A stretch of 62,701 bases of DNA, filler included, from Asterionella formosa (Eukaryota), in NCBI GenBank assembly GCA_002256025.1. It is 4 parts of 4 records of this genome, joined end to end, with 100 filler letters (N's around TTAATTAATTAA, not from the genome) between each part and the next. Parts side by side here need not be neighbours in the genome. Positions count along the whole stretch, not along the records: positions 1 to 29,380 come from NKIB01001040.1; 3 more parts are not named here. One strand, 5' to 3'. Shown here one piece after another: positions 20,112-60,862 of this stretch. A program made the translations under genes and the position numbers. Within the stretch, counting starts at the first letter, position 1. Each line of letters begins with the position of its first letter. The notes beneath the pieces were generated by a model that was given only the letters and a program-made list of their open reading frames with translations, was not told the origin of the DNA and searched no databases.

Positions 20112-20767
20112 CTGTATAATTCAGAGTCCTGTCCTCCCCTGAGGTTGCGGGGGGGGGGGCCCGGCGCGGGGGGGGGTGGGTTGGCACCAAACACCCAATA
20201 ATTTTCTAGAAATAGACAAAGTAACGTACTGCAATTCTGTTTTTACTCGTAGGCACTGGTATATAACTATTTAGCTACAATTTTGCGATTACTTTTGTAC
20301 AATATAAAACACTAGAGTGCGAAGGTAGTGGTTGTGAGCAGCTGGAGACTCCTGCATCATGTTGTCGCAACCTTGACCATGACGAAAATACGAATTATCT
20401 CCGCTGAAATTGAGAACAACACTTTGCTGCTTGCTACGTACATTAAGCACGGCATAGAAAATACAATGTTGAAAGAAGTAAAGTAATAACACTAATAATG
20501 ACAACGAAAATTGGGATTGCCAATAGCAACATGAAGTCGCGTTTTTCTTGCGAGGTGAAGAACTCTCTCATTGTTCACCGGACGGAAATAGTTGTCGTAT
20601 TTTTGTATATTAGTAGAAAATGCGCTCCATCCTGTAGAGCCGATAAAATGTAGATAGGCCCATTATAAGGGAAGTCTCTTCATTTTCCTCCCCCCTTAAG
20701 TAAAATCAGTCAAATTCAGTCACGGCATTGTTCATTGGGGGGGGGGGCAGGACACTGAATCATACGA
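20112..20767. mobile_element. Non-autonomous Tc1/pogo-type MITE
   Basis: Imperfect TIRs CTGTATAATTCAGAGTCCTGTCCTCCCC / GGGG...GCAGGACACTGAATCATACGA with TA on both flanks. Confidence 0.55.
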
Positions 20768-22130
20768 TATGCATATACCGGTACATGACCACTGGTACAT
20801 AACCTCATTAATCAACCTAAAGGTAGTATCTACATGTCCACCAATCATCGTCCATTTATATTGTTATCCTGTCTTGCTCATCCTCTTCTGGTCAAAGGAA
20901 AAGGGAGGCCAGAGATGGCATCCCTTCCTCTCTCCAAGGCTGCTCGAATGACAACGATGACATAAGACTGAGCAATTGATCATAATGTAACTTTGGTCAG
21001 TTGGGGGGAGCAAAAACCTAATTTCCAATTAAAATGCAGGAAATTAACACAAAAGCCATGCTGACAAATTCATGGATCATCAACAAATTATCGATATAAC
21101 AGGTGCCCTAGCTAAGGGAACTGAAAGACAATTGTGATAAAACATCTGAAATCATAACTTGTTTTATCAAATATTTTCTCAAAAAATATTATTTTTATCA
21201 GCCCAAAAAATGTATCTGATGGACCGGTATGTATATTGAAAGAATAATTCGCAACCCTGTTACCAGGTTCCCTCATCACTACCAGGTGCCAGTTACCTGG
21301 TACCATGCTTCGTTAAAATTTGTACATTCGAGTACCGTTACTGTTTAGAAATTGAAATATATACATGAATGATTATTAATTAATATGCAATCACAGACCA
21401 ACAAGAACACGTGTGCGTCATTTGCAAAATGTTCTGATATCATAAAACAAGAACTATGGAAAAGAAAGGTAAGCACTCGCAGCCATGCGTCCAAAAAGGG
21501 AAGGCCATTAATAACCGCAATCTAACGGGCAATTTGCATGATGCAAGGAACCAGGGAAACTTGGTGAATCAAATCGGAATTGTCCATCACATGATATATA
21601 AATATACCCGGTATGGGTTGCTGGTACCAGGTGGTACTCCGACCAGTACATACCGATGATAATGATTACCATGGTACCTGATACCATCAACCCCTTTCTC
21701 GCTCACGACTCAAGACATTACATGATAGAGGTACCAGTTTATGTATGTGAAAACGTACCAGATATCAAGTACCATCAAGACTGATTACCTATGCAATTAT
21801 TTGATGCTGTCATCGTTTATGAGAACCCAACGAAGCATGTTCGACTTACGTCACTCAGTCTGCTTAAAGGAGATGAGAACGCTAAATCAGGTAGATTATG
21901 TAGAGGAATACTAGTTTGATGAAGTGTCGACATCTATTGGCATGGACATGGCAGCCAGAAGAAGAAGCAAAAGTGATTGGACCATTCAACCCCGCCGTCA
22001 TCGCTATCATGCCTCCTTGGTACATGCATAGAAAGGAGCGTCTCGTGCAAAATGCGAATGCACATTAATTTTCCGAATTGCGATTTCCGTGGATAGGCAA
22101 AACGATTTCAATGCCAGCCTTACTTAAATC

Positions 22131-24124
22131 ATGACCAATGGAGATCGCGTACACAAGATTAGCCTTAGCTCAGATTCGAGTGAAGATGAGGGAGATAAAG
22201 ATCACACAGATCAGGGTCCACCAGCACCTGAAGCCGTTGGCGCTCCTGTCGTTGCACCGATGCCATTTGTGATTCATCCTCTTCTCCCAACGAACACGAT
22301 ATTTCTGAATCCATTTTGGACCTTTCATGTAGCTGACCACTATATGGTACCATTACTGGGTCAGCAGTCTCCAATAGCTTCAACAACTGGGCCGCATTTG
22401 CCTGGATTATTGACTACATCTGAATCCATTGAATACCAAGATCATGCAGGTGACGAGCAGCAGTGTAATATCAGCAACACGGATGAACCCTTCCCAGTTA
22501 AGCTTCATCAAATGATGAGCGATTCTTCCTGCTCTGAAATCATTTCGTGGATGCCTCATGGTCGTTCGTGGAAGATTCGTGATACTGTACTCCTTGAAAC
22601 AGCGGTACTTCCAAAGTATTTCAAGCACACTCGCTTCGCCAGTTTCATGAGACAAGTCAATGGCTGGGGTTTTCGACGATTTCCTTTAGGAAGCCTTGAT
22701 CACCGTTCCTATTATCATGAGGTGAGTTTTCTACGCATCCTCCGTTTGCGTTCTTTTATTATTTCGTTATTAAGAATAGCGTGTTTTAAGGGGGTCCAAA
22801 TGCAACAAGTCACGAACGAGTGATACTCTTAAGCATTCCGTTGCGGTACTTCACTGCTGTGTGACGGATAACTTACCTTTCTCCTTCATCTTCATGTTTT
22901 CAGCTGTTCTTGCGAGGCCGTCCACACCTCTGTCATGACATGAAGCGATCACGTGGAAAGCTGAAACCAATTCTCAACATAGATCATCCTGATTTCTACA
23001 GCTTATCCCTGTTTCTCCCGTTACCAGAGGTCTCGCCGGCTGCGTTAGCACCATTGACTATCGCCGACAGCTTTAGTGAGAAGGACCTTTCGATGAAACC
23101 CACAAGCCTTCGTGCACATACGCGTTGTTTGCTGTCCTCCGACAAGAAGCGCACATCTCGAAAGCGACGTCAGAAATTCCAAAGCAACAGGCCGATATCT
23201 CATGTCAATGAAGACAATGATCCGGAAGGTACAATTGAAATACCCACGCAACAGTGGAGTTCCTCAATACTGGATACCAATCCCAAAACTTCTTCGCTAC
23301 ACGTCAGTATTAATACGCTTCAAAACTTCGCCAACAGCGAAAGCGTAGCAAGTAATTCAAGTGACTTTCGTGAAAGTGGGACCTCCATGGACTTTGGAAA
23401 TAAGGACTCTTCATTTGATACTTTGTGGCGTGGGAGCACAATAACTTCAAAAGATCCACCTTCAAACAATTCCATGTGCAACCAAGACAAGGATGAGATT
23501 TCCTTCCCCCAAATACCGATTCCTTCACCTGGTATTTTGTCGGTTGCTTGTGAGTCAGGTAACCCATACGAAGGTTTGGCACAACTTGCACCTTTCTTTG
23601 CTGCACATGACCTTCTGGAACCAGTATCCGCTGCACAACCATTTCCTGGGCCTGGTATACCCTTGAGCCATATACCTCAAGCATTTTTTTCTTTTTCTCA
23701 ACCTCAACCACGGGTCCTTCCTGCAATAGTACCGACATCCCAGTCCTCTGGAATGGCACAGATGATGCCAATGCATCAGGGAGTTGTCAGGAATCCCATG
23801 CAATTTCCAACACCTCCACCATTCTTACCCCTGTCTGCACCAACATGGATGCAGCAGCAACCACTGTCACAAGCACAGGAACAATCGATTTCTACCAATC
23901 TGCTATATCCTCATCTGAATTCCCCACGAAATTACTTGTCCACATCTTGGCCAGGTGTTCAACAGCAGTTCCTAGCAGGACAAACGCAAAGGCCCACCTT
24001 AAACCCTGATGCATTGCATTTCGATCAGCCAGAAATGGATTTCTCAGAATGGAAGCATGAAGAATCGAACAGTGATGAGACCACAGAATCTAGTGAAGGT
24101 AACAATGGCAGATTCATTAACTAG
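22131..24124 (+). CDS. Heat shock transcription factor family protein, 2 exons (intron 22722-22903)
   Basis: HSF DNA-binding domain PFPVKLHQM...IISWMPHGRSW...YFKHTRFASFMRQVNGWGF...YYHE|LFLRGRPHL; P/Q/S-rich tail. Confidence 0.93.
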
Positions 24125-24322
24125 GTTCAGGGGTTTACACCCAAGAATATGAAATTATTATTATTTGCTATCCAGTGTTATTTGCTATCCAGTGTTGATG
24201 GTGCGTCATGTAATAGTATTCATTTTTTGCTTCGCCTAAAATTATGGACAAATGTGATAGTTTGAAGTGACAGCACCAGGGCAATCTTTGTATAAATAAG
24301 TATACTACCATGGTATCATTAA

Positions 24323-25669
24323 CTTCATTTATTTAGAGCCTTCAGACTACAATAGGTGATTAGGGGAGCCTGCATGGCGCTTCCTGGCAGGTCCAACATG
24401 GGCATCGAAATAACTGCGCCCTCCAAGTATCAACAAATGTGGTGACTTCTGGTGCTCGCATATGGGGAATTTTCTGGTGAGGTACACTCTCTCAAATGAG
24501 AGTAGGGATCAAAATGGTGCCAAATGTGCTGAATTTAATTCTTTCACCTCATCAGGTATTAGGGAGGAAATTCAATACCTTTGGTTGTTCTTGTTGTGGC
24601 TGTTTGGACCACATGTTTGGCGAGATGCCACTTGCTCGTCAAGGACACTGTGATAAAAATTGTCGCGGAATTGTTGCCCAATCTATTTCATTTTCTTCCA
24701 TTTTCCTTGTAATTTTTACAGAGACTTGGACCTTGAGTGTCAATTGTACCATTCATTGACGCCTCTTTTCTGATGATTCTCAACAGGGAAGCCGGAAAAC
24801 TTTGTAGCTTGACTATACCAGTGCAGTGGCAGATTCCTTGTTGGTCTGTATTTGTTCTAGATTAGTTCCTATTATTTTCACCTTGATACTTAGCGAAAAA
24901 AAAGAACATCCATTCTTACTAACAATGTACACTACCTGGTACTACCATGACATAGAACTGATCTCAATTATAATGCAGATGTACTATGTACAGCGTATGC
25001 AGTGAGCTACCTACAAGCACATGAAAGAATCAACAGAAACAACAAGAAACTCAAGGAGCTTGACGAAAATCAATGGAATGCAACAACATGCATCATTCAA
25101 TTGATGAGCGCATTTGTCGATGTACTGGCATCAGAAGTGAGGCTCCATTGGCGCTTTGAGCTACACAATAATTACAGAGTATGCAATGAGCTAGTACAAA
25201 CACATGAAAGAATCAACAGAAACAACAAGAATTCAAGAAAAGTCATGATGATCATGTCACCACATTTCACTTTGATCCAATCAGTTGATATGAGCTAAAG
25301 CTGCACAATATTATCAGAGTCTGCCATAAATACCACAAAGGCAAGGCAAACACATGGGAGGCAAATATATGCCTCATTAAAAGATCAAACCAAGCTATCT
25401 GCCTTCTCCTCAGTCATCAAGATGTGGGGACAGATTAACTCACCAGTGCCAGAATATGAAATTTACACCACACATACTTCCCCCTACTCTCATTCGAGAG
25501 AGTGTATCCACCCTTTCCCCGCCTTGCAGTGCCCAAAAGTCGGCACATTTGTTGGGTTGATACTGGGTAGGTTAAGATTTTTATACAACCTAGGCTGTCA
25601 ATGCCAGGAAGCGCCATGCAGGCTACCCTACTAACACTTGAGTAGTCTTAAGGCGCTTAATCAATGAAG
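24323..25669. mobile_element. Non-autonomous DNA transposon, piggyBac-like
   Basis: About 220-bp imperfect terminal inverted repeats with TTAA directly outside both ends (24319-24322, 25670-25673); internal ~185-bp direct repeat. Confidence 0.65.
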
Positions 25670-25965
25670 TTAACTATGATAGTACATTTGGTACTGCACA
25701 ACCAAATATTTTACATATACAGAAAAGAAAAGGAATTTTATTTCTATGATAAGGTAGGTCTATGTATTTACCGGAATGGGAGGAATTATGCTCAGGGTAC
25801 CAGGTACCTGGTACGGAGTACGAGGTACCCGATGTAGCTCTTGTTGGCACTAGCATGAGAACAACCCTTTCCATTTTGGTTTTTTCGTCATTGTCAAGGC
25901 AAAGACGCATGAAATTATGCAGGATTCTCCAGCTGCTCACAACCCCTACTGTACACTCTAGTGGT

Positions 25966-25990
25966 CCCTAACCCTAACCCTAACCACTAA
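25966..25990 (+). repeat. Interstitial telomeric repeat (CCCTAA)3+
   Basis: CCCTAACCCTAACCCTAACCACTAA. Confidence 0.85.
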
Positions 25991-26929
25991 AACATTCAAG
26001 GACCTTTCCTCAGAAACCGACGCCCTTGTTACTTCCTTCTCCCAAGCTATTAAAAAAAAATCAAGCTTACTTCAGCACTCGAACTCAAAACCACGAAGAT
26101 CGCAATTGCATCTCATATTCTTGAAAGTCTAACTATCTTAGCTAAAGGCAGCATCTTAACAATCACCACGGAAAGTACCATCTCCAATGAAATGATACTA
26201 GATGTGATCAAAACAGTCAAGTGCAAACCAGCGATTCAAGAACTACTAGTCAACGCTGATACAATTAATGCCGCAACTTAACTCTATGATCTCCTTCCTC
26301 CAACAGTTTATACTCAAGACCAACTACAGCTTTTGTCACAATCCAACTTACAAATCAACCTAAAGTCAACAATCGTTCAAACAGTCATCCCAACGTTCAA
26401 ACAATCGATTCTACATATGTAAATCAATTCACGCAACGCATTTGATCAAACAAACATAATCAACAAGCAGAAACTCCGTATGGAATCCTTCTCCAAAATG
26501 ACACTTTTTGACAATACTACTACATTATTGACTATGGAATTCGACAAAGAACACAGCGTAGAGCCCAACCAACTCTCCAAATTAATCAATGATAAAGTAA
26601 ACAAAGCCACACTATCAATGAGAAAAGAGCTTGCTAAAACTTAAGGAAACATCAACACCAAAAAACACCTCAAGAGGGGCAACCGATACAACCGACACAA
26701 CAGTCAAACCTGGAAAGAAATCAACAAACAAAACAACCAAGACAACTTCAAGAAAGAAAACAGACCAAAGCGCCTCACAAAAAAAGAAAAAAACAACCGG
26801 TCAACAACATAACCATTGACTCCAAAAACAAAGCCGATGTTATAGACTCAGATACCTCGACAGAGAACAAAAAACTCTCCAAAAAACTGACAAAAAAGAA
26901 GAAGACGAAATAGCTAAGAAACATCATTA

Positions 26930-28420
26930 ATTGTTTTCCGTTGCGATAAAAACCTTGGTCCAGCCATTTTATGAACGATCTCGATACATCAACATGGCTC
27001 TCAATGACCATCTCCTAAACAAAAATATCTATCGACAAATTTCTGAACAACAAGCTGAAGGAAGGATAAAGGCAATCACCAAACTGACTACGAACTTTAG
27101 TCTTAAACACTTCAAACCTAAGGAAACAACATCAACGTTCCTTAACCGTTCCCTACAAACAAAAGACCCATTTGCATACTTCTACTTACTGGCGAAAATA
27201 CATAAGACACCGCTAACAACCCGGCCCATCATCATTGTGAGTGGAAGTATCTGCCATGGTCTAGGCAAATGGACTGATGTCAGTCTTCAAAAAATCACTC
27301 AACATCTCCCATTTACCCTTTCAAGCTCCTTCAAGCTTGTCCATGATATTCGCTCCATTAATAACGTCTCAACAACCGCAACCTTATTTACCATGGACGC
27401 AATCTCTATGTACACTAACATAGACACAACCCACACTCTTTCCGTCATTAATAAATTCCTATGAATTGACAGACCAGACATCTGCCTCAACGAAGATATT
27501 AATATTTATGCACTCATAAATGCACTCGAAATTATCATGCGAGATAACATTTTTAAATTCGAAAATACATACTGGATCCAAACATCTGGAACAGCTATGG
27601 GGACACCTCCGGCACCAACATATGCCACCCTCTATTTTGCAATTCACGAAATACAAACCATCCCAACCTTTCCACAAATATCCTTCTACAGAAGGTAAAT
27701 TGATGATTGTTTTATAATCTGAGTCCCTACATCAACTACCCATATCGAGGATCAAAAATCACACAACTCGTTTATCAGCTTGATGAATAATTTTGGCACA
27801 CTAAAATGGAATGCAGAACCACGGAGATTATCAACAACTTTCCTGGATCTCACTATTTCTATCAATCAACACACCCGTTCTATTGATACAACACTATTAT
27901 AGAAATCTATGAATCCCTATCTCTACATACCACAACATAGCGCACACCCTCCCGGTGTCCTTCGCGGTATTATTGCAGGCATGATCCGCCGAATCTACCA
28001 TTTAACAACGGTCGAGACACATTTTAAAACTGCAATCCATTCTTTTTACAACCGCTTACATGTCCAAGGTTATTCTGCTAAAACCCTTATACCCATCTTT
28101 AATACATACATCAAACAATTATGTATTAACAAATCGGACACCACCAACACGGCCACTCAAAGAACGGACACAAACACAGAGCAATGTGTGTTCCTCCACA
28201 TGCCATTTCATCCGAACAACCCTCCATCATCTCACATACAACGCATCTTCCAAGACACTATATTTTCCCCGAAGAAAGAACCAACTCTTACTTCACTACG
28301 GAATTTTCTCCGGAAATCAATGTACTATGCAAAGGTTGATAATTGCTTATAATCGCCCTAAAAATATTGGTAATTATACATCACCACGGAAACTGAGATC
28401 GGAAACCACTTCAGTCAGTA
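26930..28420 (+). pseudogene. PLE reverse transcriptase pseudogene
   Basis: In-frame stops at 27462, 27696 (Tyr of YIDD) and 27720; frameshifts near 26970 and 28310. Confidence 0.85.
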
Positions 28421-28617
28421 CTCACCTACTTACAACGCAAATTGATAGCAAACAGAAAACATCAACGCCAACCAGGTCCATGCTACCAGGTACCAGGTGC
28501 CCTCCACCTCCACTCTCAATACCGCTTCAACTCCTGGTGCATTTTCACAGCCAAACACGTCTGTACACCCCCCCCCGGCACGCACCAGGACCACAACAAA
28601 ACATTACTACAGATGCA

Positions 28618-28676
28618 TGCCAACTGATGAAGCCCCTTCAGGCGAAAAGTAACATTAGTCTCATTACTTTTTGGCA
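28618..28676 (+). ncRNA. Type I hammerhead ribozyme motif
   Basis: Stem I TGCCAA/TTGGCA; core CTGATGA; stem II GCC-CCTTCA-GGC; GAAA; stem III AAGTAA/TTACTT; NUH triplet UUU at 28668-28670. Confidence 0.8.
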
Positions 28677-28720
28677 ACTTAAGTAGTCACCTCATCGTCG
28701 CTGGATAATAGTCATTGTAG

Positions 28721-28752
28721 CCCTCACCCCTAACCTAACCCTAACCCTAACC
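28721..28752 (+). repeat. Interstitial telomeric repeat (CCCTAA)n, imperfect
   Basis: CCCTCACCCCTAACCTAACCCTAACCCTAACC. Confidence 0.85.
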
Positions 28753-29007
28753 GGCGTACAAGCCGAGCACGCAAGGAATGGACTCTGTCCTTATCATCCA
28801 GACATTCAGCTTCGCAAAGAGAATCTGTCTGGAGTTTTGAAGACTGTGCGAATAAAGACGAGAAAGTCCAAGTCAAAAACAAAAAATTACCACTAATTGA
28901 TAATCAAAATATAACAGATTTCGTTATTACAAAAATAAATAATAATTGATCCTCTTATAATTACCATAGAAACCATTTCCCACGTTGGGTCAATATGAGT
29001 AGTGCTC

Positions 29008-29380
29008 CTATAAGTTTTTCTTATACGTGGCATTGGAGTTCTGAAGTCCAGAAAAACAAGATTCTTGCACCTTAGCATTGGAGGAATGAGTCTTCATTGT
29101 AGAGAGAGTCGTAATGATACCTCCTGCATCAGCAATCGTCACCTGGTTCTTGTCAATATTCGCAGACAAGCACAGAAGTGCTCCACAACCATTCTCTTGC
29201 ACCTTAGCATTGGAGGAATGAGTCTTCATTTCAGACAGAATCGTAGCGATACCTCGTGCTTCAGCAATCATCACCTTGTTCTTGTCATTATTCTCAGCCA
29301 AGTTCCTAAGTGCTCCACAACCATAGTGTTGAACATTAGCATTTGAGGAATGAGCCTTCATTGCAGACAGAATCCTAATG
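29008..29380 (-). CDS. Armadillo-repeat protein, 3' fragment (5' part lost in gap)
   Basis: 44-aa/132-nt tandem units MK.HSSNA.VQ..GCGAL..L..N.DKN.V.IA.A.GI. Confidence 0.75.
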
Positions 29381-29480
29381 NNNNNNNNNNNNNNNNNNNN
29401 NNNNNNNNNNNNNNNNNNNNNNNNTTAATTAATTAANNNNNNNNNNNNNNNNNNNNNNNNNNNNNNNNNNNNNNNNNNNN
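29381..29480. other. Assembly gap with artificial TTAATTAATTAA spacer
   Basis: N-run, TTAATTAATTAA, N-run; identical structure at 58824-58923 and 60763-60862. Confidence 0.95.
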
Positions 29481-34233: not shown

Positions 34234-34690
34234 NNNNNNNNNNNNNNNNNNNNNNNNNNNNNNNNNNNNNNNNNNNNNNNNNNNNNNNNNNNNNNNNNNN
34301 NNNNNNNNNNNNNNNNNNNNNNNNNNNNNNNNNNNNNNNNNNNNNNNNNNNNNNNNNNNNNNNNNNNNNNNNNNNNNNNNNNNNNNNNNNNNNNNNNNNN
34401 NNNNNNNNNNNNNNNNNNNNNNNNNNNNNNNNNNNNNNNNNNNNNNNNNNNNNNNNNNNNNNNNNNNNNNNNNNNNNNNNNNNNNNNNNNNNNNNNNNNN
34501 NNNNNNNNNNNNNNNNNNNNNNNNNNNNNNNNNNNNNNNNNNNNNNNNNNNNNNNNNNNNNNNNNNNNNNNNNNNNNNNNNNNNNNNNNNNNNNNNNNNN
34601 NNNNNNNNNNNNNNNNNNNNNNNNNNNNNNNNNNNNNNNNNNNNNNNNNNNNNNNNNNNNNNNNNNNNNNNNNNNNNNNNNNNNNNNNNN
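34234..34690. other. Assembly gap
   Basis: N-run. Confidence 0.99.
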
Positions 34691-35356
34691 NATACACTGA
34701 ATCGAAACTGATTACTTATCCGTTGAGTATATATAGTGAATCGTCGAACATACGCTTCGTACTTGCATCAGGTCGATTGATAAATTCAATAAATTTTTTC
34801 AGTCGGAAGATGGAGTAAAATAACGGTGGCTTCCAGTTTTTAACTGGTACCTTTACATGGTGCTCCTACCAGGTAACCTGGTTACCTGGTATACCACTGC
34901 TTTTTAACCGGAATTTGTACTGGCGTAAATGACCGGTAATTATAGAAAAAAAATTATCACACGACTGATGGCGAGATTTCCTGATCTTGAACATCCAGTG
35001 ATGAGGATACATCATAAGAAGCACATACAATTAATTAGCGGAGGGAATTCTCTAACGAATGAGAAAATCGCAGAAAAAAAACGATCAGTATCGTCGTGTG
35101 TGTTATCGGCAATCCGGTCTCGAAACAAAGAGGTGCTGCTTCATGGTGATTACAAACAATAAACCCCTGATACTTTTACAGGTTTACTTTAAGCAGTATA
35201 CGAAGCAGAGGGAAATTTCCTGTTTAGGGGGTTGCGCATGTATTATTTAACAAGTTCGCAATCGCCTATTATCAAGAGATCACAGATTGAAAACAATCTT
35301 CTTGATTGAGTGTGTAACCCAGCGCAAACGATATTGCGGCTTGCCCCTTGTTGAGA

Positions 35357-58159: not shown

Positions 58160-60862
58160 ACAAGGAGCAGTCTTGGTCAGTTCCGTAGTGTGTAGACCCA
58201 TTGAAATATATTAGATGTTAGAGCACGGATTATCACCAAGCTTACTGCGCTCCTGCTAGTTCGAGAAAAAGGAGCAAGTATTCCAATATGAAGATGTCAT
58301 TGATGCCATTCCAGCCGACAATGAAGGAATACTTTGTCTTCCCTAGATTCAAATGTGAGTGGAAAAGTGTGTTGTTGCGCCATCACCGGAAAAGGTTGGT
58401 CAAACTGAATGCTATAGGCTTACAGGGTTCATGAGCATAGGGCCTAGGCTATTTTATCGACCGAGGTGATCTTCGTGGAAGGGTACAGTTATTCTAACAC
58501 ACTACTACTAGTAGCAACGTAAAACTAAATGTGTATGTGTATATGCTTAAGTGCTTTTGTAAAAGTTTTTTTATTTAATCCCACCAATGAACATTGAAGA
58601 TGTGCTTACGAAGCAATGGTACGTGAAACGAAAAGCATGATCATATTTCTGCAAATTCCACCTCATAAGTTCTAAAGTTAACGTATGTGGAAGGATGTGT
58701 AGGTGGCATTATGAACGACGGCGACGCTATAAAGGCGCTTCGGGAAGTCGTGTCTTCGACGCACTGTCCCATTCTCGACATGCATTCCAGAGCGTAATCC
58801 CATCTAGCCCGAATGTTACTTTCNNNNNNNNNNNNNNNNNNNNNNNNNNNNNNNNNNNNNNNNNNNNTTAATTAATTAANNNNNNNNNNNNNNNNNNNNN
58901 NNNNNNNNNNNNNNNNNNNNNNNCGGTAGTTTTGAATGGCTCTGGACTGTATTTCTCGTAACCACTCACTGTGAGCATCTTCGTACGTACGTAAGGACAG
59001 ACAATTTTAGCATTGTACCTGTACATACCTCTGGTGCTCCCTTCCCTCTGGTCGAAACCGATGAATTGCGTCAATTTGCAGCGGCTCAAGTGCCGAGCAG
59101 CTTGCTTTTAGGACAGATTGCGTAGTAGAATATATAGTAATTTTCTACCTGAAGGTACGCTTCCTCAAAAAGTGAGTTTTTAAAAAGTTACATAGTACCG
59201 TATGTAGTTGTGAACATATACTACTCGTCTGTTTCTGAAAATTAAATTATTAGCGTTTGAATAATTTAATGGAAACCAATTTAACATATATATATATATT
59301 TGTATACATATAAACATTCGGAACATGTACATACCACCAAATGCCTTTTTTTCGGCTGTTCCACGGCACCAGGTGAAAACCTATCTGGCCGCTTGCTTTG
59401 CCCTACCCCATCCATGTGGGGTGCTTGAGAGGCATAATGGGAGAATTCTTCCTCCTTTAAGCAATCACCTAATGCCATTTTACATCAGTTGGCCACTCAA
59501 ATATTTGCAAGAAACCAAATAAAGCATATCACTTTCATAATTATTATGTAGCTTGAATTACTGTCATTACATATACTTCCTATCATGGTAGTTACATTTT
59601 TACATGAACCATACTGCCGGATATTAAATGGTTCCAATCATCAAAACGAGCATAACATCCTTTTCTTCCTTCCCATCATAGCCGCTTTCGCAGTTGCACA
59701 ATCCATCCTTAAAGACATGTTACCATTGTTCTAGCTACTGTTAGTATGTTCGACTTTGTACGTATGTAGAGAATAGATGGACGGAAGTAAAATGGGTCCT
59801 CATGACTCTACATTTTGCTCAAGATAGCCAAAAGCGAAAATCGAGAAAAGCCCAAAAAGTTTTTTGAAATGTAGTTGCCAATTTTACTATTTCTATATTT
59901 ATTGTATAAATGGATCTGTAGCTTAGAGAAAGGCGCACATGAGGGCAATTAATCAGGAGAAAATTGTAAAAGTCAAAACACAACCCAGAGAAATTTTAAG
60001 AATTGACGCAATTTTTTTGTCTAAAGAGTGTAACTAAGTGTGTTCCTAAATTTGCATCCATCCAAACATACTGGAGAGTGGGGAGGGGGGCTCGCTGAAT
60101 TCACAGCCTGTCTGAGATACTCATACTGCCGGTAGTTGAGGTGATGTAATGCAACACAAGCTATGTATGTTATAGACCAAGAACACTACAATGCCAACAG
60201 CCACCTATATGCAATGCACTAGGCAGAATGGTAATTTTTGACTCCCATGGCGACTTTACTGTTGCGAAGCCAATTTAATGGCAGTTGTCGCCACATTGGT
60301 TTCTGCTTTTGGAACAATCACAACCAAACAGAACTTTCTGATGCGAAGATTCAACAGTGCCCAAATTTCGAAAGTATCAAATCTGTTTCTATCATCTTCG
60401 TTTTGAATTGTGCATCTCTAAATTGCATTAAAAAAAGGCGCCGTTGGCGACTTCAATTCTCGTCGTCAATATTAGTGTAATTACAATCATTTTTAACGAT
60501 TGTATTTTTTTATATTGTGCTTGATATACGTACCAATAGGAAAGCGTTGTTCTCAAATTTCGTGGAAATATTCGCTATTTTCGTCATGGTCAAGGCTGTG
60601 ATGATATGATGAAGGATTCTCCAGCTGATCACAAAGCATACACTCTAGTGTTTTGTATACATAAAAGAATCGCAAAAACTCAGCTAAATAAATCGTTTTT
60701 GTTGTGCAGCTTCTGTGAAAGTGGTCTCAAATCTTTTCATATCGTCATCATTTTGAATTGTGNNNNNNNNNNNNNNNNNNNNNNNNNNNNNNNNNNNNNN
60801 NNNNNNTTAATTAATTAANNNNNNNNNNNNNNNNNNNNNNNNNNNNNNNNNNNNNNNNNNNN

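Follow-up and report, generated by a model that had tools for sequence, protein, structure and literature searches.

The motif at 28618-28676 of the Asterionella formosa DNA analysed here (a stretch of 62,701 nucleotides made of joined contigs, hereafter the window) is very probably the hammerhead ribozyme of an endonuclease-deficient Penelope-like element (PLE) of the Athena/Coprina type, a reading to which we assign a probability of roughly 0.85. The sequence of the motif by itself is suggestive, not compelling, and the matter is settled by its context. The element copy occupies 25986-28720 with a telomeric tract on either side and is a fossil, truncated at its 5' end in ORF1, with an RT frame broken by four in-frame stops and two or more frameshifts. 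Its features, with those of the ribozyme motif, are the following.

25966-25985, plus strand: upstream C-strand telomeric tract, a perfect (CCCTAA)3CC, which caps the 5'-truncated copy.
25986-26819, plus strand: remnant of ORF1, of no known family and truncated at its 5' end, recognised by its match to the ORF1 of relatives.
26820-28482, plus strand: decayed ORF2 encoding the reverse transcriptase (RT) of an endonuclease-deficient PLE, delimited by tblastn with relatives.
28618-28676, plus strand: type-I hammerhead ribozyme motif, recognised by sequence, descriptor, the covariance model of relatives and covariation.
28618-28623 with 28671-28676, plus strand: helix I, 6 bp, open (TGCCAA with TTGGCA).
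28624-28630, plus strand: CUGAUGA box of the core (CTGATGA), followed by an extra A at 28631.
28632-28643, plus strand: helix II, 3 bp with a 6-nt loop (GCC-CCTTCA-GGC).
28644-28646, plus strand: GAA of the core.
28647-28669, plus strand: helix III, 6 bp with an 11-nt loop (AAGTAA with TTACTT).
28670, plus strand: U17 (T in the DNA).
28670/28671, plus strand: predicted self-cleavage site, after U17, placed by the hammerhead consensus.
28677-28720, plus strand: 44-nt tail from the ribozyme to the telomeric tract, with a GGATAA box at 28703-28708.
28721-28752, plus strand: downstream C-strand telomeric tract, reading CCCTCACCCCTAACCTAACCCTAACCCTAACC (CCCTCA, CCCCTAA and CCTAA, then CCCTAA twice and CC), the reverse complement of the G-strand.

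The preliminary description had parsed 28618-28676 in exactly this way, with an intact core and 6-bp stems I and III, and its claim of a complete, monomer-type type-I hammerhead is supported by the helices, the RT context, the relatives of the element and the covariation among them. It had also placed the hammerhead just 5' of the 3' telomeric tract, and the gap to the tract at 28721-28752 is indeed 44 nt. The cut position 28670/28671 is deduced from the established hammerhead consensus. The minimum-energy fold of the motif, at -11.8 kcal/mol, pairs the CUGAUG box to CAUUAG of loop III; the hammerhead fold, at -9.7 kcal/mol, lies 2.1 kcal/mol higher, and the 59-mer has a folding z-score of just -1.15.

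This modest z-score is one of the points in favour of a chance hammerhead-like string without biological meaning. The bare core CTGANGA..GAAA is another, with 10 matches in the window against 6.3 expected, and a third is the silence of Rfam 15, in which no hammerhead reached gathering score in the window and none was found at E<=10 in 28500-28800. Against these stands the full type-I descriptor (core, three helices, A15.1-U16.1 and H17), for which 28618-28676 is the sole match in the window on both strands; among 400 first-order Markov windows, six contained a loose descriptor match and a single one contained an equally good match. The Rfam hammerhead models also found nothing at E<=10 in 17 loci of relatives, and since they miss the variant class there too, we ascribe their silence on the window to the reach of the models. 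The check by hammerhead models that had been suggested earlier thus has a divided outcome, Rfam remaining silent while the descriptor and the relatives' covariance model both find the motif. We conclude that the curated Rfam models miss a well-defined hammerhead subclass.

The relatives of the element carry most of the argument. A search with the window's RT, read through its stops, gave 920 protein relatives at E<=0.001, of which the closest shares 84% identity, and 78 loci in metagenome contigs encode RT relatives at 33-49% identity. By the descriptor, 41 of these 78 loci have a hammerhead in the sense orientation of the RT and none has one in the antisense orientation; its matches downstream of the RT match begin 213-959 nt past the end of that match. 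Where at least 900 nt follow the RT match (27 loci), the descriptor succeeds in 21; the covariance model adds L011, L060, L067 and L073, bringing the number found by descriptor or model to 25, and L042 and L059 have no hammerhead by either. This covariance model was built from the motifs of nine relatives (a gap-free seed), the window's own motif being left out. Searched against 323,573 bases, it matches 57 times at E<=1, always on the RT-sense strand, and places a hammerhead at E<=0.01 in 48 of the 78 loci. Run on both strands of the window with filters off, it returns 28617-28677 with a score of 26.7 bits and E=1.7e-5, well ahead of the runner-up in the window, which scores 11.5 bits.

Pair counts were made on a model-fitted alignment of 45 distinct sequences; a plain MAFFT alignment of 32 motifs had misplaced the insertions of helices II and III and was dropped for this purpose. 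Paired cells amount to 88.8% against 28.6-42.0% with slid partners, cells changed on both sides to 203 against 22-38, and the covariation score to 0.787 against 0.065-0.144, a value reached by none of 500 shuffles, with both-side changes in 11 of the 13 modelled pairs; all these figures lean towards structure, because the alignment is structure-fitted and its seeds came from a descriptor that demands minimal pairing. The regularities of strand and position are independent of this bias. An alignment for covariation and for the consensus triplet, proposed earlier for genomic copies and made here with relatives, brought out strong pairing covariation, with U17 as the consensus cut-site base. The chance reading, to which we give practically no probability, is refuted by a family model independent of the window's motif and by the recurrence of the hammerhead, identically placed and oriented and with covariation, in 48 of 78 loci.

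The counts over distinct family sequences also show what kind of hammerhead this is. G5, A6, G8 and A9 are present in 45 of 45, C3 in 43 of 45 and U4 in 41 of 45; G12 is found in 43 of 44, and A13 and A14 each in 44 of 44. An extra A follows A9, that is, the CUGAUGA box, in 45/45, and G10.1-C11.1, A15.1-U16.1 and U17 are each found in 44/44. The window motif conforms at A15.1-U16.1, G10.1-C11.1 and H17, and its core still shows every family-invariant base. Being invariant across distinct members, the extra A and U17 are family traits and not decay, and the earlier view of UUU as a weak, perhaps decayed triplet does not hold. Helix II is often 2 bp in the family and closed by GAAA. For specialists, this Rfam-missed subclass is of interest in that it combines an additional A behind A9 with an unvarying U17 and, often, a 2-bp helix II closed by GAAA. 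A CUC triplet before the 3' strand of helix III (28660-28662 in the window) recurs in many members, though their helix III sequences are otherwise unrelated, and might serve within the loop as a tertiary contact or as a binding site for protein.

The frame 26931-28352 of the window encodes the RT, with in-frame stops at 27462, 27696, 27720 and 27900, two of which fall on invariant residues, the Y of YIDD and a W. In tblastn with relatives, 26820-28304 matches in one frame and 28312-28482 in another, which marks a frameshift. The motifs of the RT, present in the window in decayed form (DKNLG in relatives, GTAMG, YIDD, FLD, and SAHP, which is SAHPPGV in relatives), are ones that we take to be PLE-specific. 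DKN, RT1-7 and the thumb are given as PLE motifs in the text of PMC13159263. Membership of the RT in the PLEs rests on these motifs and on its sequence relatives. Precomputed Pfam annotation of RT relatives gives DUF8422 and HTH_animal, a local Pfam search of one RT relative gives RVT_1 below threshold, and the look-alikes of the RT in the atlas are commonest in Rotifera and Arthropoda, which serves as a lead only. Local Pfam searches of the window's RT pieces and of the read-through returned no family, and the RT profile returned nothing at E<=1 against PDB sequences.

In most aligned relatives the ORF2 protein stops some 20-60 aa past the ...RP.NLGN..PR region, at most about 60 aa beyond the thumb, and these proteins have no endonuclease domain; those of P0059 and P0116 run on in long low-complexity tails. 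In the window, the interval from the end of the RT to the hammerhead holds no trace of an endonuclease domain and has no room for one. About 135 nt separate the last RT homology of the tblastn relatives (28482) from the hammerhead, and the closest relative, P0002 (84% identity), aligns as far as 28574, which places the end of ORF2 about 30 nt 5' of the ribozyme. Upstream, residues 237-318 of the ORF1 of L003 and L077 (about 423 aa) match 26375-26620 with 32% identity (E 4e-8 to 6e-7), and the copy is accordingly truncated, and telomere-capped, inside ORF1. The ORF1 of relatives matched no Pfam family.

A GC skew of -0.25 to -0.40 is confined to the element, whose 2.7 kb are G-poor on the sense strand. 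TGA accounts for two of the four in-frame RT stops and in one case occupies the position of a tryptophan. The G-poorness and the TGA stops could reflect either the native composition of a retroelement or a G-to-A mutation bias.

By blastn there is no second copy of the element within the window. Copies elsewhere were compared at 85% likeness in the contigs of four public runs, two DNA and two RNA libraries from algal, lake and freshwater samples, X2 and X18 coming from one sample; as contigs they show no RNA ends, strand or level, and the gaps in X18 RNA cover within the element carry no meaning. The element is multi-copy, with 1303 matching pieces in X1. At 27900-27902, where the window has the stop TAG, other copies have GAA (14/14 contigs in X1, 3/3 in X18, 3/3 in X19, and 452 of 517 depth units in X2), and other copies are also without one base at 28304 (6795 of 9614 depth units in X1) and one at 26971. 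The window therefore carries a decayed copy from a family in which less damaged copies exist. One X18 RNA contig extends 325 nt 5' of 25986. In X1, which is possibly the window's own source, contigs join the tract end 25985 to the element at 27620, 27651, 27827, 28667, 28671 and 28674; joins at six positions are the published signature of variously 5'-truncated, telomere-capped copies.

In relatives the element can be seen as a whole. Full units (L017, L027 and L067) have two ORFs and measure 3755-4343 nt from cut site to cut site, and the ORF1 ATG of the next unit lies about 80 nt past the ribozyme. The order within a unit of the family is a GGATAA tail, a short C-rich telomere-like stretch, ORF1, ORF2 (RT), the hammerhead, and again the tail with a telomere-complementary stretch. 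Of 48 distinct tails, 25 have an exact GGATAA, 24 of these 14-28 nt past the motif, and 43 have the box within one mismatch; the control figures are 0/45 upstream segments and 37/2000 random 60-mers. When the tails were inspected by eye, no hairpin around GGATAA common to the family was seen. A conserved box at 14-28 nt past the motif is itself a feature of specialist interest. The telomere-like stretch is looser, AACCC occurring at +30..+110 in 13 of 46 relatives' tails (247 of 3000 random segments) and CCCTAACC or CCTAACCC in 3 of 46 (9 of 3000 random segments); two perfect CCCTAA units were found in none of the 78 relatives' loci. At L067:4297-4480, the tail and C-rich end are tandemly duplicated past the hammerhead, the second tail copy amounting to a very short unit, truncated at its 5' end, that is stacked upon a complete unit.

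Several contigs hold more than one hammerhead. In L038, L043 and L046 a hammerhead stands at both contig ends, 3.6-4.2 kb apart and with some ends redundant, and in L012, L016 and L034 two copies are separated by 3.6-3.7 kb; contigs like these represent whole units, either arrayed in tandem or assembled into what looks like a circle. They would also be produced if unit RNAs were cut at both hammerheads and circularised, as in the hammerhead-bearing retrozymes that are known to circularise (PMC5680766), the redundant contigs then being circular RNA or DNA and not tandem arrays. Head-to-tail PLE arrays, the published norm (PMC6431247), nevertheless assemble alike, and the window copy is linear, truncated and telomere-flanked. 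We therefore regard circularisation as highly improbable.

The layout found here is already in print, protists and diatoms included (PMC4209133, PMC13159263). Type-I hammerheads with a large helix III, stable as monomers, were described in endonuclease-deficient PLEs of fungi and protists by Cervera and De la Pena (2014, PMC4209133), with a Thalassiosira oceanica example in the inset of their Fig. 3, and Coprina PLEs occur in the diatom Phaeodactylum tricornutum (PMC13159263); the earlier suggestion that the layout might be undescribed in diatoms is contradicted by both sources. What is new is an abundant freshwater and marine PLE family with this hammerhead layout. It shares with the fungal and protist type-I variants of PMC4209133 a large, stable helix III and a fold predicted to be active in monomeric form, as well as variable helices I and II that make no recognisable loop-loop contacts. 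The extra A after A9 recalls the unpaired base at the 5' end of stem II in the minimal PLE hammerheads of metazoans, as that paper presents them.

As to the element itself, Athena of bdelloid rotifers and Coprina of fungi, Selaginella and Phaeodactylum tricornutum have, as here, an RT without GIY-YIG, and the likeness extends to 5'-truncated copies capped by short telomeric repeats, to head-to-tail stacking, and to reverse-complement telomeric repeats at the 3' end beside a hammerhead (PMC8557442, PMC13159263). By the rule of thumb in PMC13159263, the two ORFs of the present family would make it Athena, yet its host is a diatom, where Coprina has been reported. Unlike Athena and Coprina, the copy studied here lies between host genes within joined contigs. 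The preliminary description had likened the 3' end to that of bdelloid Terminons, and the hammerhead-plus-telomere arrangement does correspond. The name is too specific for a unit of about 3.8-4.3 kb with two ORFs, since Terminons, as summarised in PMC6431247, are giant multi-gene units with minimal, dimer-type hammerheads, in contrast to the monomer-type ribozyme and 44-nt tail before the repeats seen here.

HDV-like ribozymes of R2 and related non-LTR elements free the 5' end of the co-transcribed RNA. The present family would resemble them in that a self-cleaving RNA sets the 5' end of the retroelement RNA, if the unit RNA starts at the cut site; it differs in the class of ribozyme, in the class of retroelement and in having the motif at the 3' end of every copy as well. 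Telomerase RT has its nearest relatives in the Penelope-like RTs, whose endonuclease-free members extend chromosome ends, so that the 3' modules of PLEs bear on the origin of telomerase.

A published model combines priming by the chromosome overhang with capping by telomerase (PMC8557442, PMC13159263). Applied to this family, the C-rich stretch of the RNA would pair with the G-rich overhang where a chromosome end is uncapped, the RT of the element would lengthen that end by copying the element RNA, and telomerase would cap whatever 5' end the cDNA had reached. The C-strand repeats that flank the sense strand at either end have the orientation that such priming and capping would be expected to leave. 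In read-through or tandem transcripts, the ribozyme would probably cut after U17, the unit RNA then beginning at the first base of the tail and having a tail at both ends. An RNA that is to prime must keep its 3' hammerhead uncut, because the priming stretch would otherwise be lost.

Cleavage in vivo is likely but unproven. In X1, a contig of depth 681 has telomeric repeats running into 28671 with one letter, C, between them, and to within one base it starts where the cut is predicted; the join to 28674 seems to be this junction again, with a single mismatch. Among relatives, 3 of 74 contigs with a true 5' end (L017, L027 and L067) start 1-2 nt past their own predicted site, where by our arithmetic, with units of about 3.8 kb, roughly 0.06 such starts would be expected by chance. 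The join and the three contig starts are suggestive of an RNA that begins at the cut site and is copied to that end, and DNA copies and contigs starting at the predicted site are of interest to specialists in their own right. PMC4209133, in its treatment of PLE hammerheads, describes evidence for cleavage in vivo as lacking, and PMC11167929 did not find such evidence for an endonuclease-bearing element. Truncations near the site need not mean cleavage, as the tail duplicate of L067 starts 11 nt before its predicted site.

The main rival to cleavage in vivo is a hammerhead-like fold that does not cut and serves as a structural 3' element, presenting the telomere-complementary stretch to the overhang or the RT, a view of hammerheads set out in section 8 of PMC6431247. 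In its favour, a contig from the X18 RNA library (185 nt, depth 959) spans the cut site from 28572 to 28720, so that uncut RNA, or DNA in that library, exists. Copies that keep the tail and repeats past the hammerhead, the window's included, must moreover have been templated by RNA left uncut at that hammerhead. The choice of cut-site base points the same way, since U17 cleaves more slowly than C or A. For the endonuclease-bearing PLE PAc, hammerhead catalytic mutants insert normally in vitro and no reads were found at the cut site in the experiments reported in PMC11167929. The core bases are nevertheless invariant across RT divergence down to 33% identity, which a hairpin scaffold does not need, and a telomere-capped copy and three contigs start at the predicted site. 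A fungal PLE hammerhead of the monomeric kind also cleaves in vitro, at 0.16-1.97 per min (PMC4209133). On balance we hold the purely structural fold to be unlikely, and cleavage in vivo to be the better reading.

A more far-reaching proposal joins three parts, namely that the motif is cut in vivo, that the cut site is the true 5' boundary of the element RNA, and that the 3' product is copied onto chromosome ends. As a joint claim we consider it decidedly doubtful. If it were true, new copies would begin with the tail, the GGATAA box and the telomere-like stretch, and the product made of tail and C-rich end, copied by a telomerase-related RT, would give 'tail-only' units between telomeric repeats. 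The ribozyme would then release a small template RNA akin to a primitive telomerase RNA, and GGATAA might be an RT-binding site, a template-boundary signal or a promoter.

Host genes lie on both sides of the element, among them members of the amine oxidase, PPR, peroxidase, HSF, DnaJ-C11 and Efg1 families. The best look-alike of the amine oxidase in the atlas is commonest in Bacillariophyta, which as a lead only points to a diatom. The window is a set of joined contigs, with spacers of 44 N, TTAATTAATTAA and 44 N at 29381-29480, 58824-58923 and 60763-60862, and a run of 458 N at 34234-34691, so that distances to chromosome ends and the long-range context are unreliable. Both flanks of the element are very high-copy repeats, the nearest linker being that at 29381-29480. 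To the right, another high-copy sequence (28753-29380) abuts the tract and reaches a depth of about 150,000 at 28771-28850 in a DNA and an RNA run; a 132-nt tandem repeat at 29043-29306 lies inside a minus-strand ORF, 29008-29424. To the left, a short repeat at 25880-25965, present in inverted form at 20300-20390, has a depth of 57,302 in X1. The telomeric tract cuts off this repeat, where the inverted copy and contigs from other samples continue with TTTATAT... Strand polarity suggests that at the right junction telomerase healed a break within a repeat, and that at the left junction (25965/25966) either a capped end became attached to other DNA at a later time or a mis-join occurred.

Further left of the element, 24319-24507 and 25482-25673 contain several inverted-repeat arms of 22-34 nt, 86-96% complementary, which bracket about 1.35 kb and are possibly a small foldback or TIR element. 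An ORF at 22128-22823, 3 kb left of the element, encodes an HSF-type DNA-binding domain (E 1.6e-18) and seems to extend into a long Q/P-rich ORF (22865-24124).
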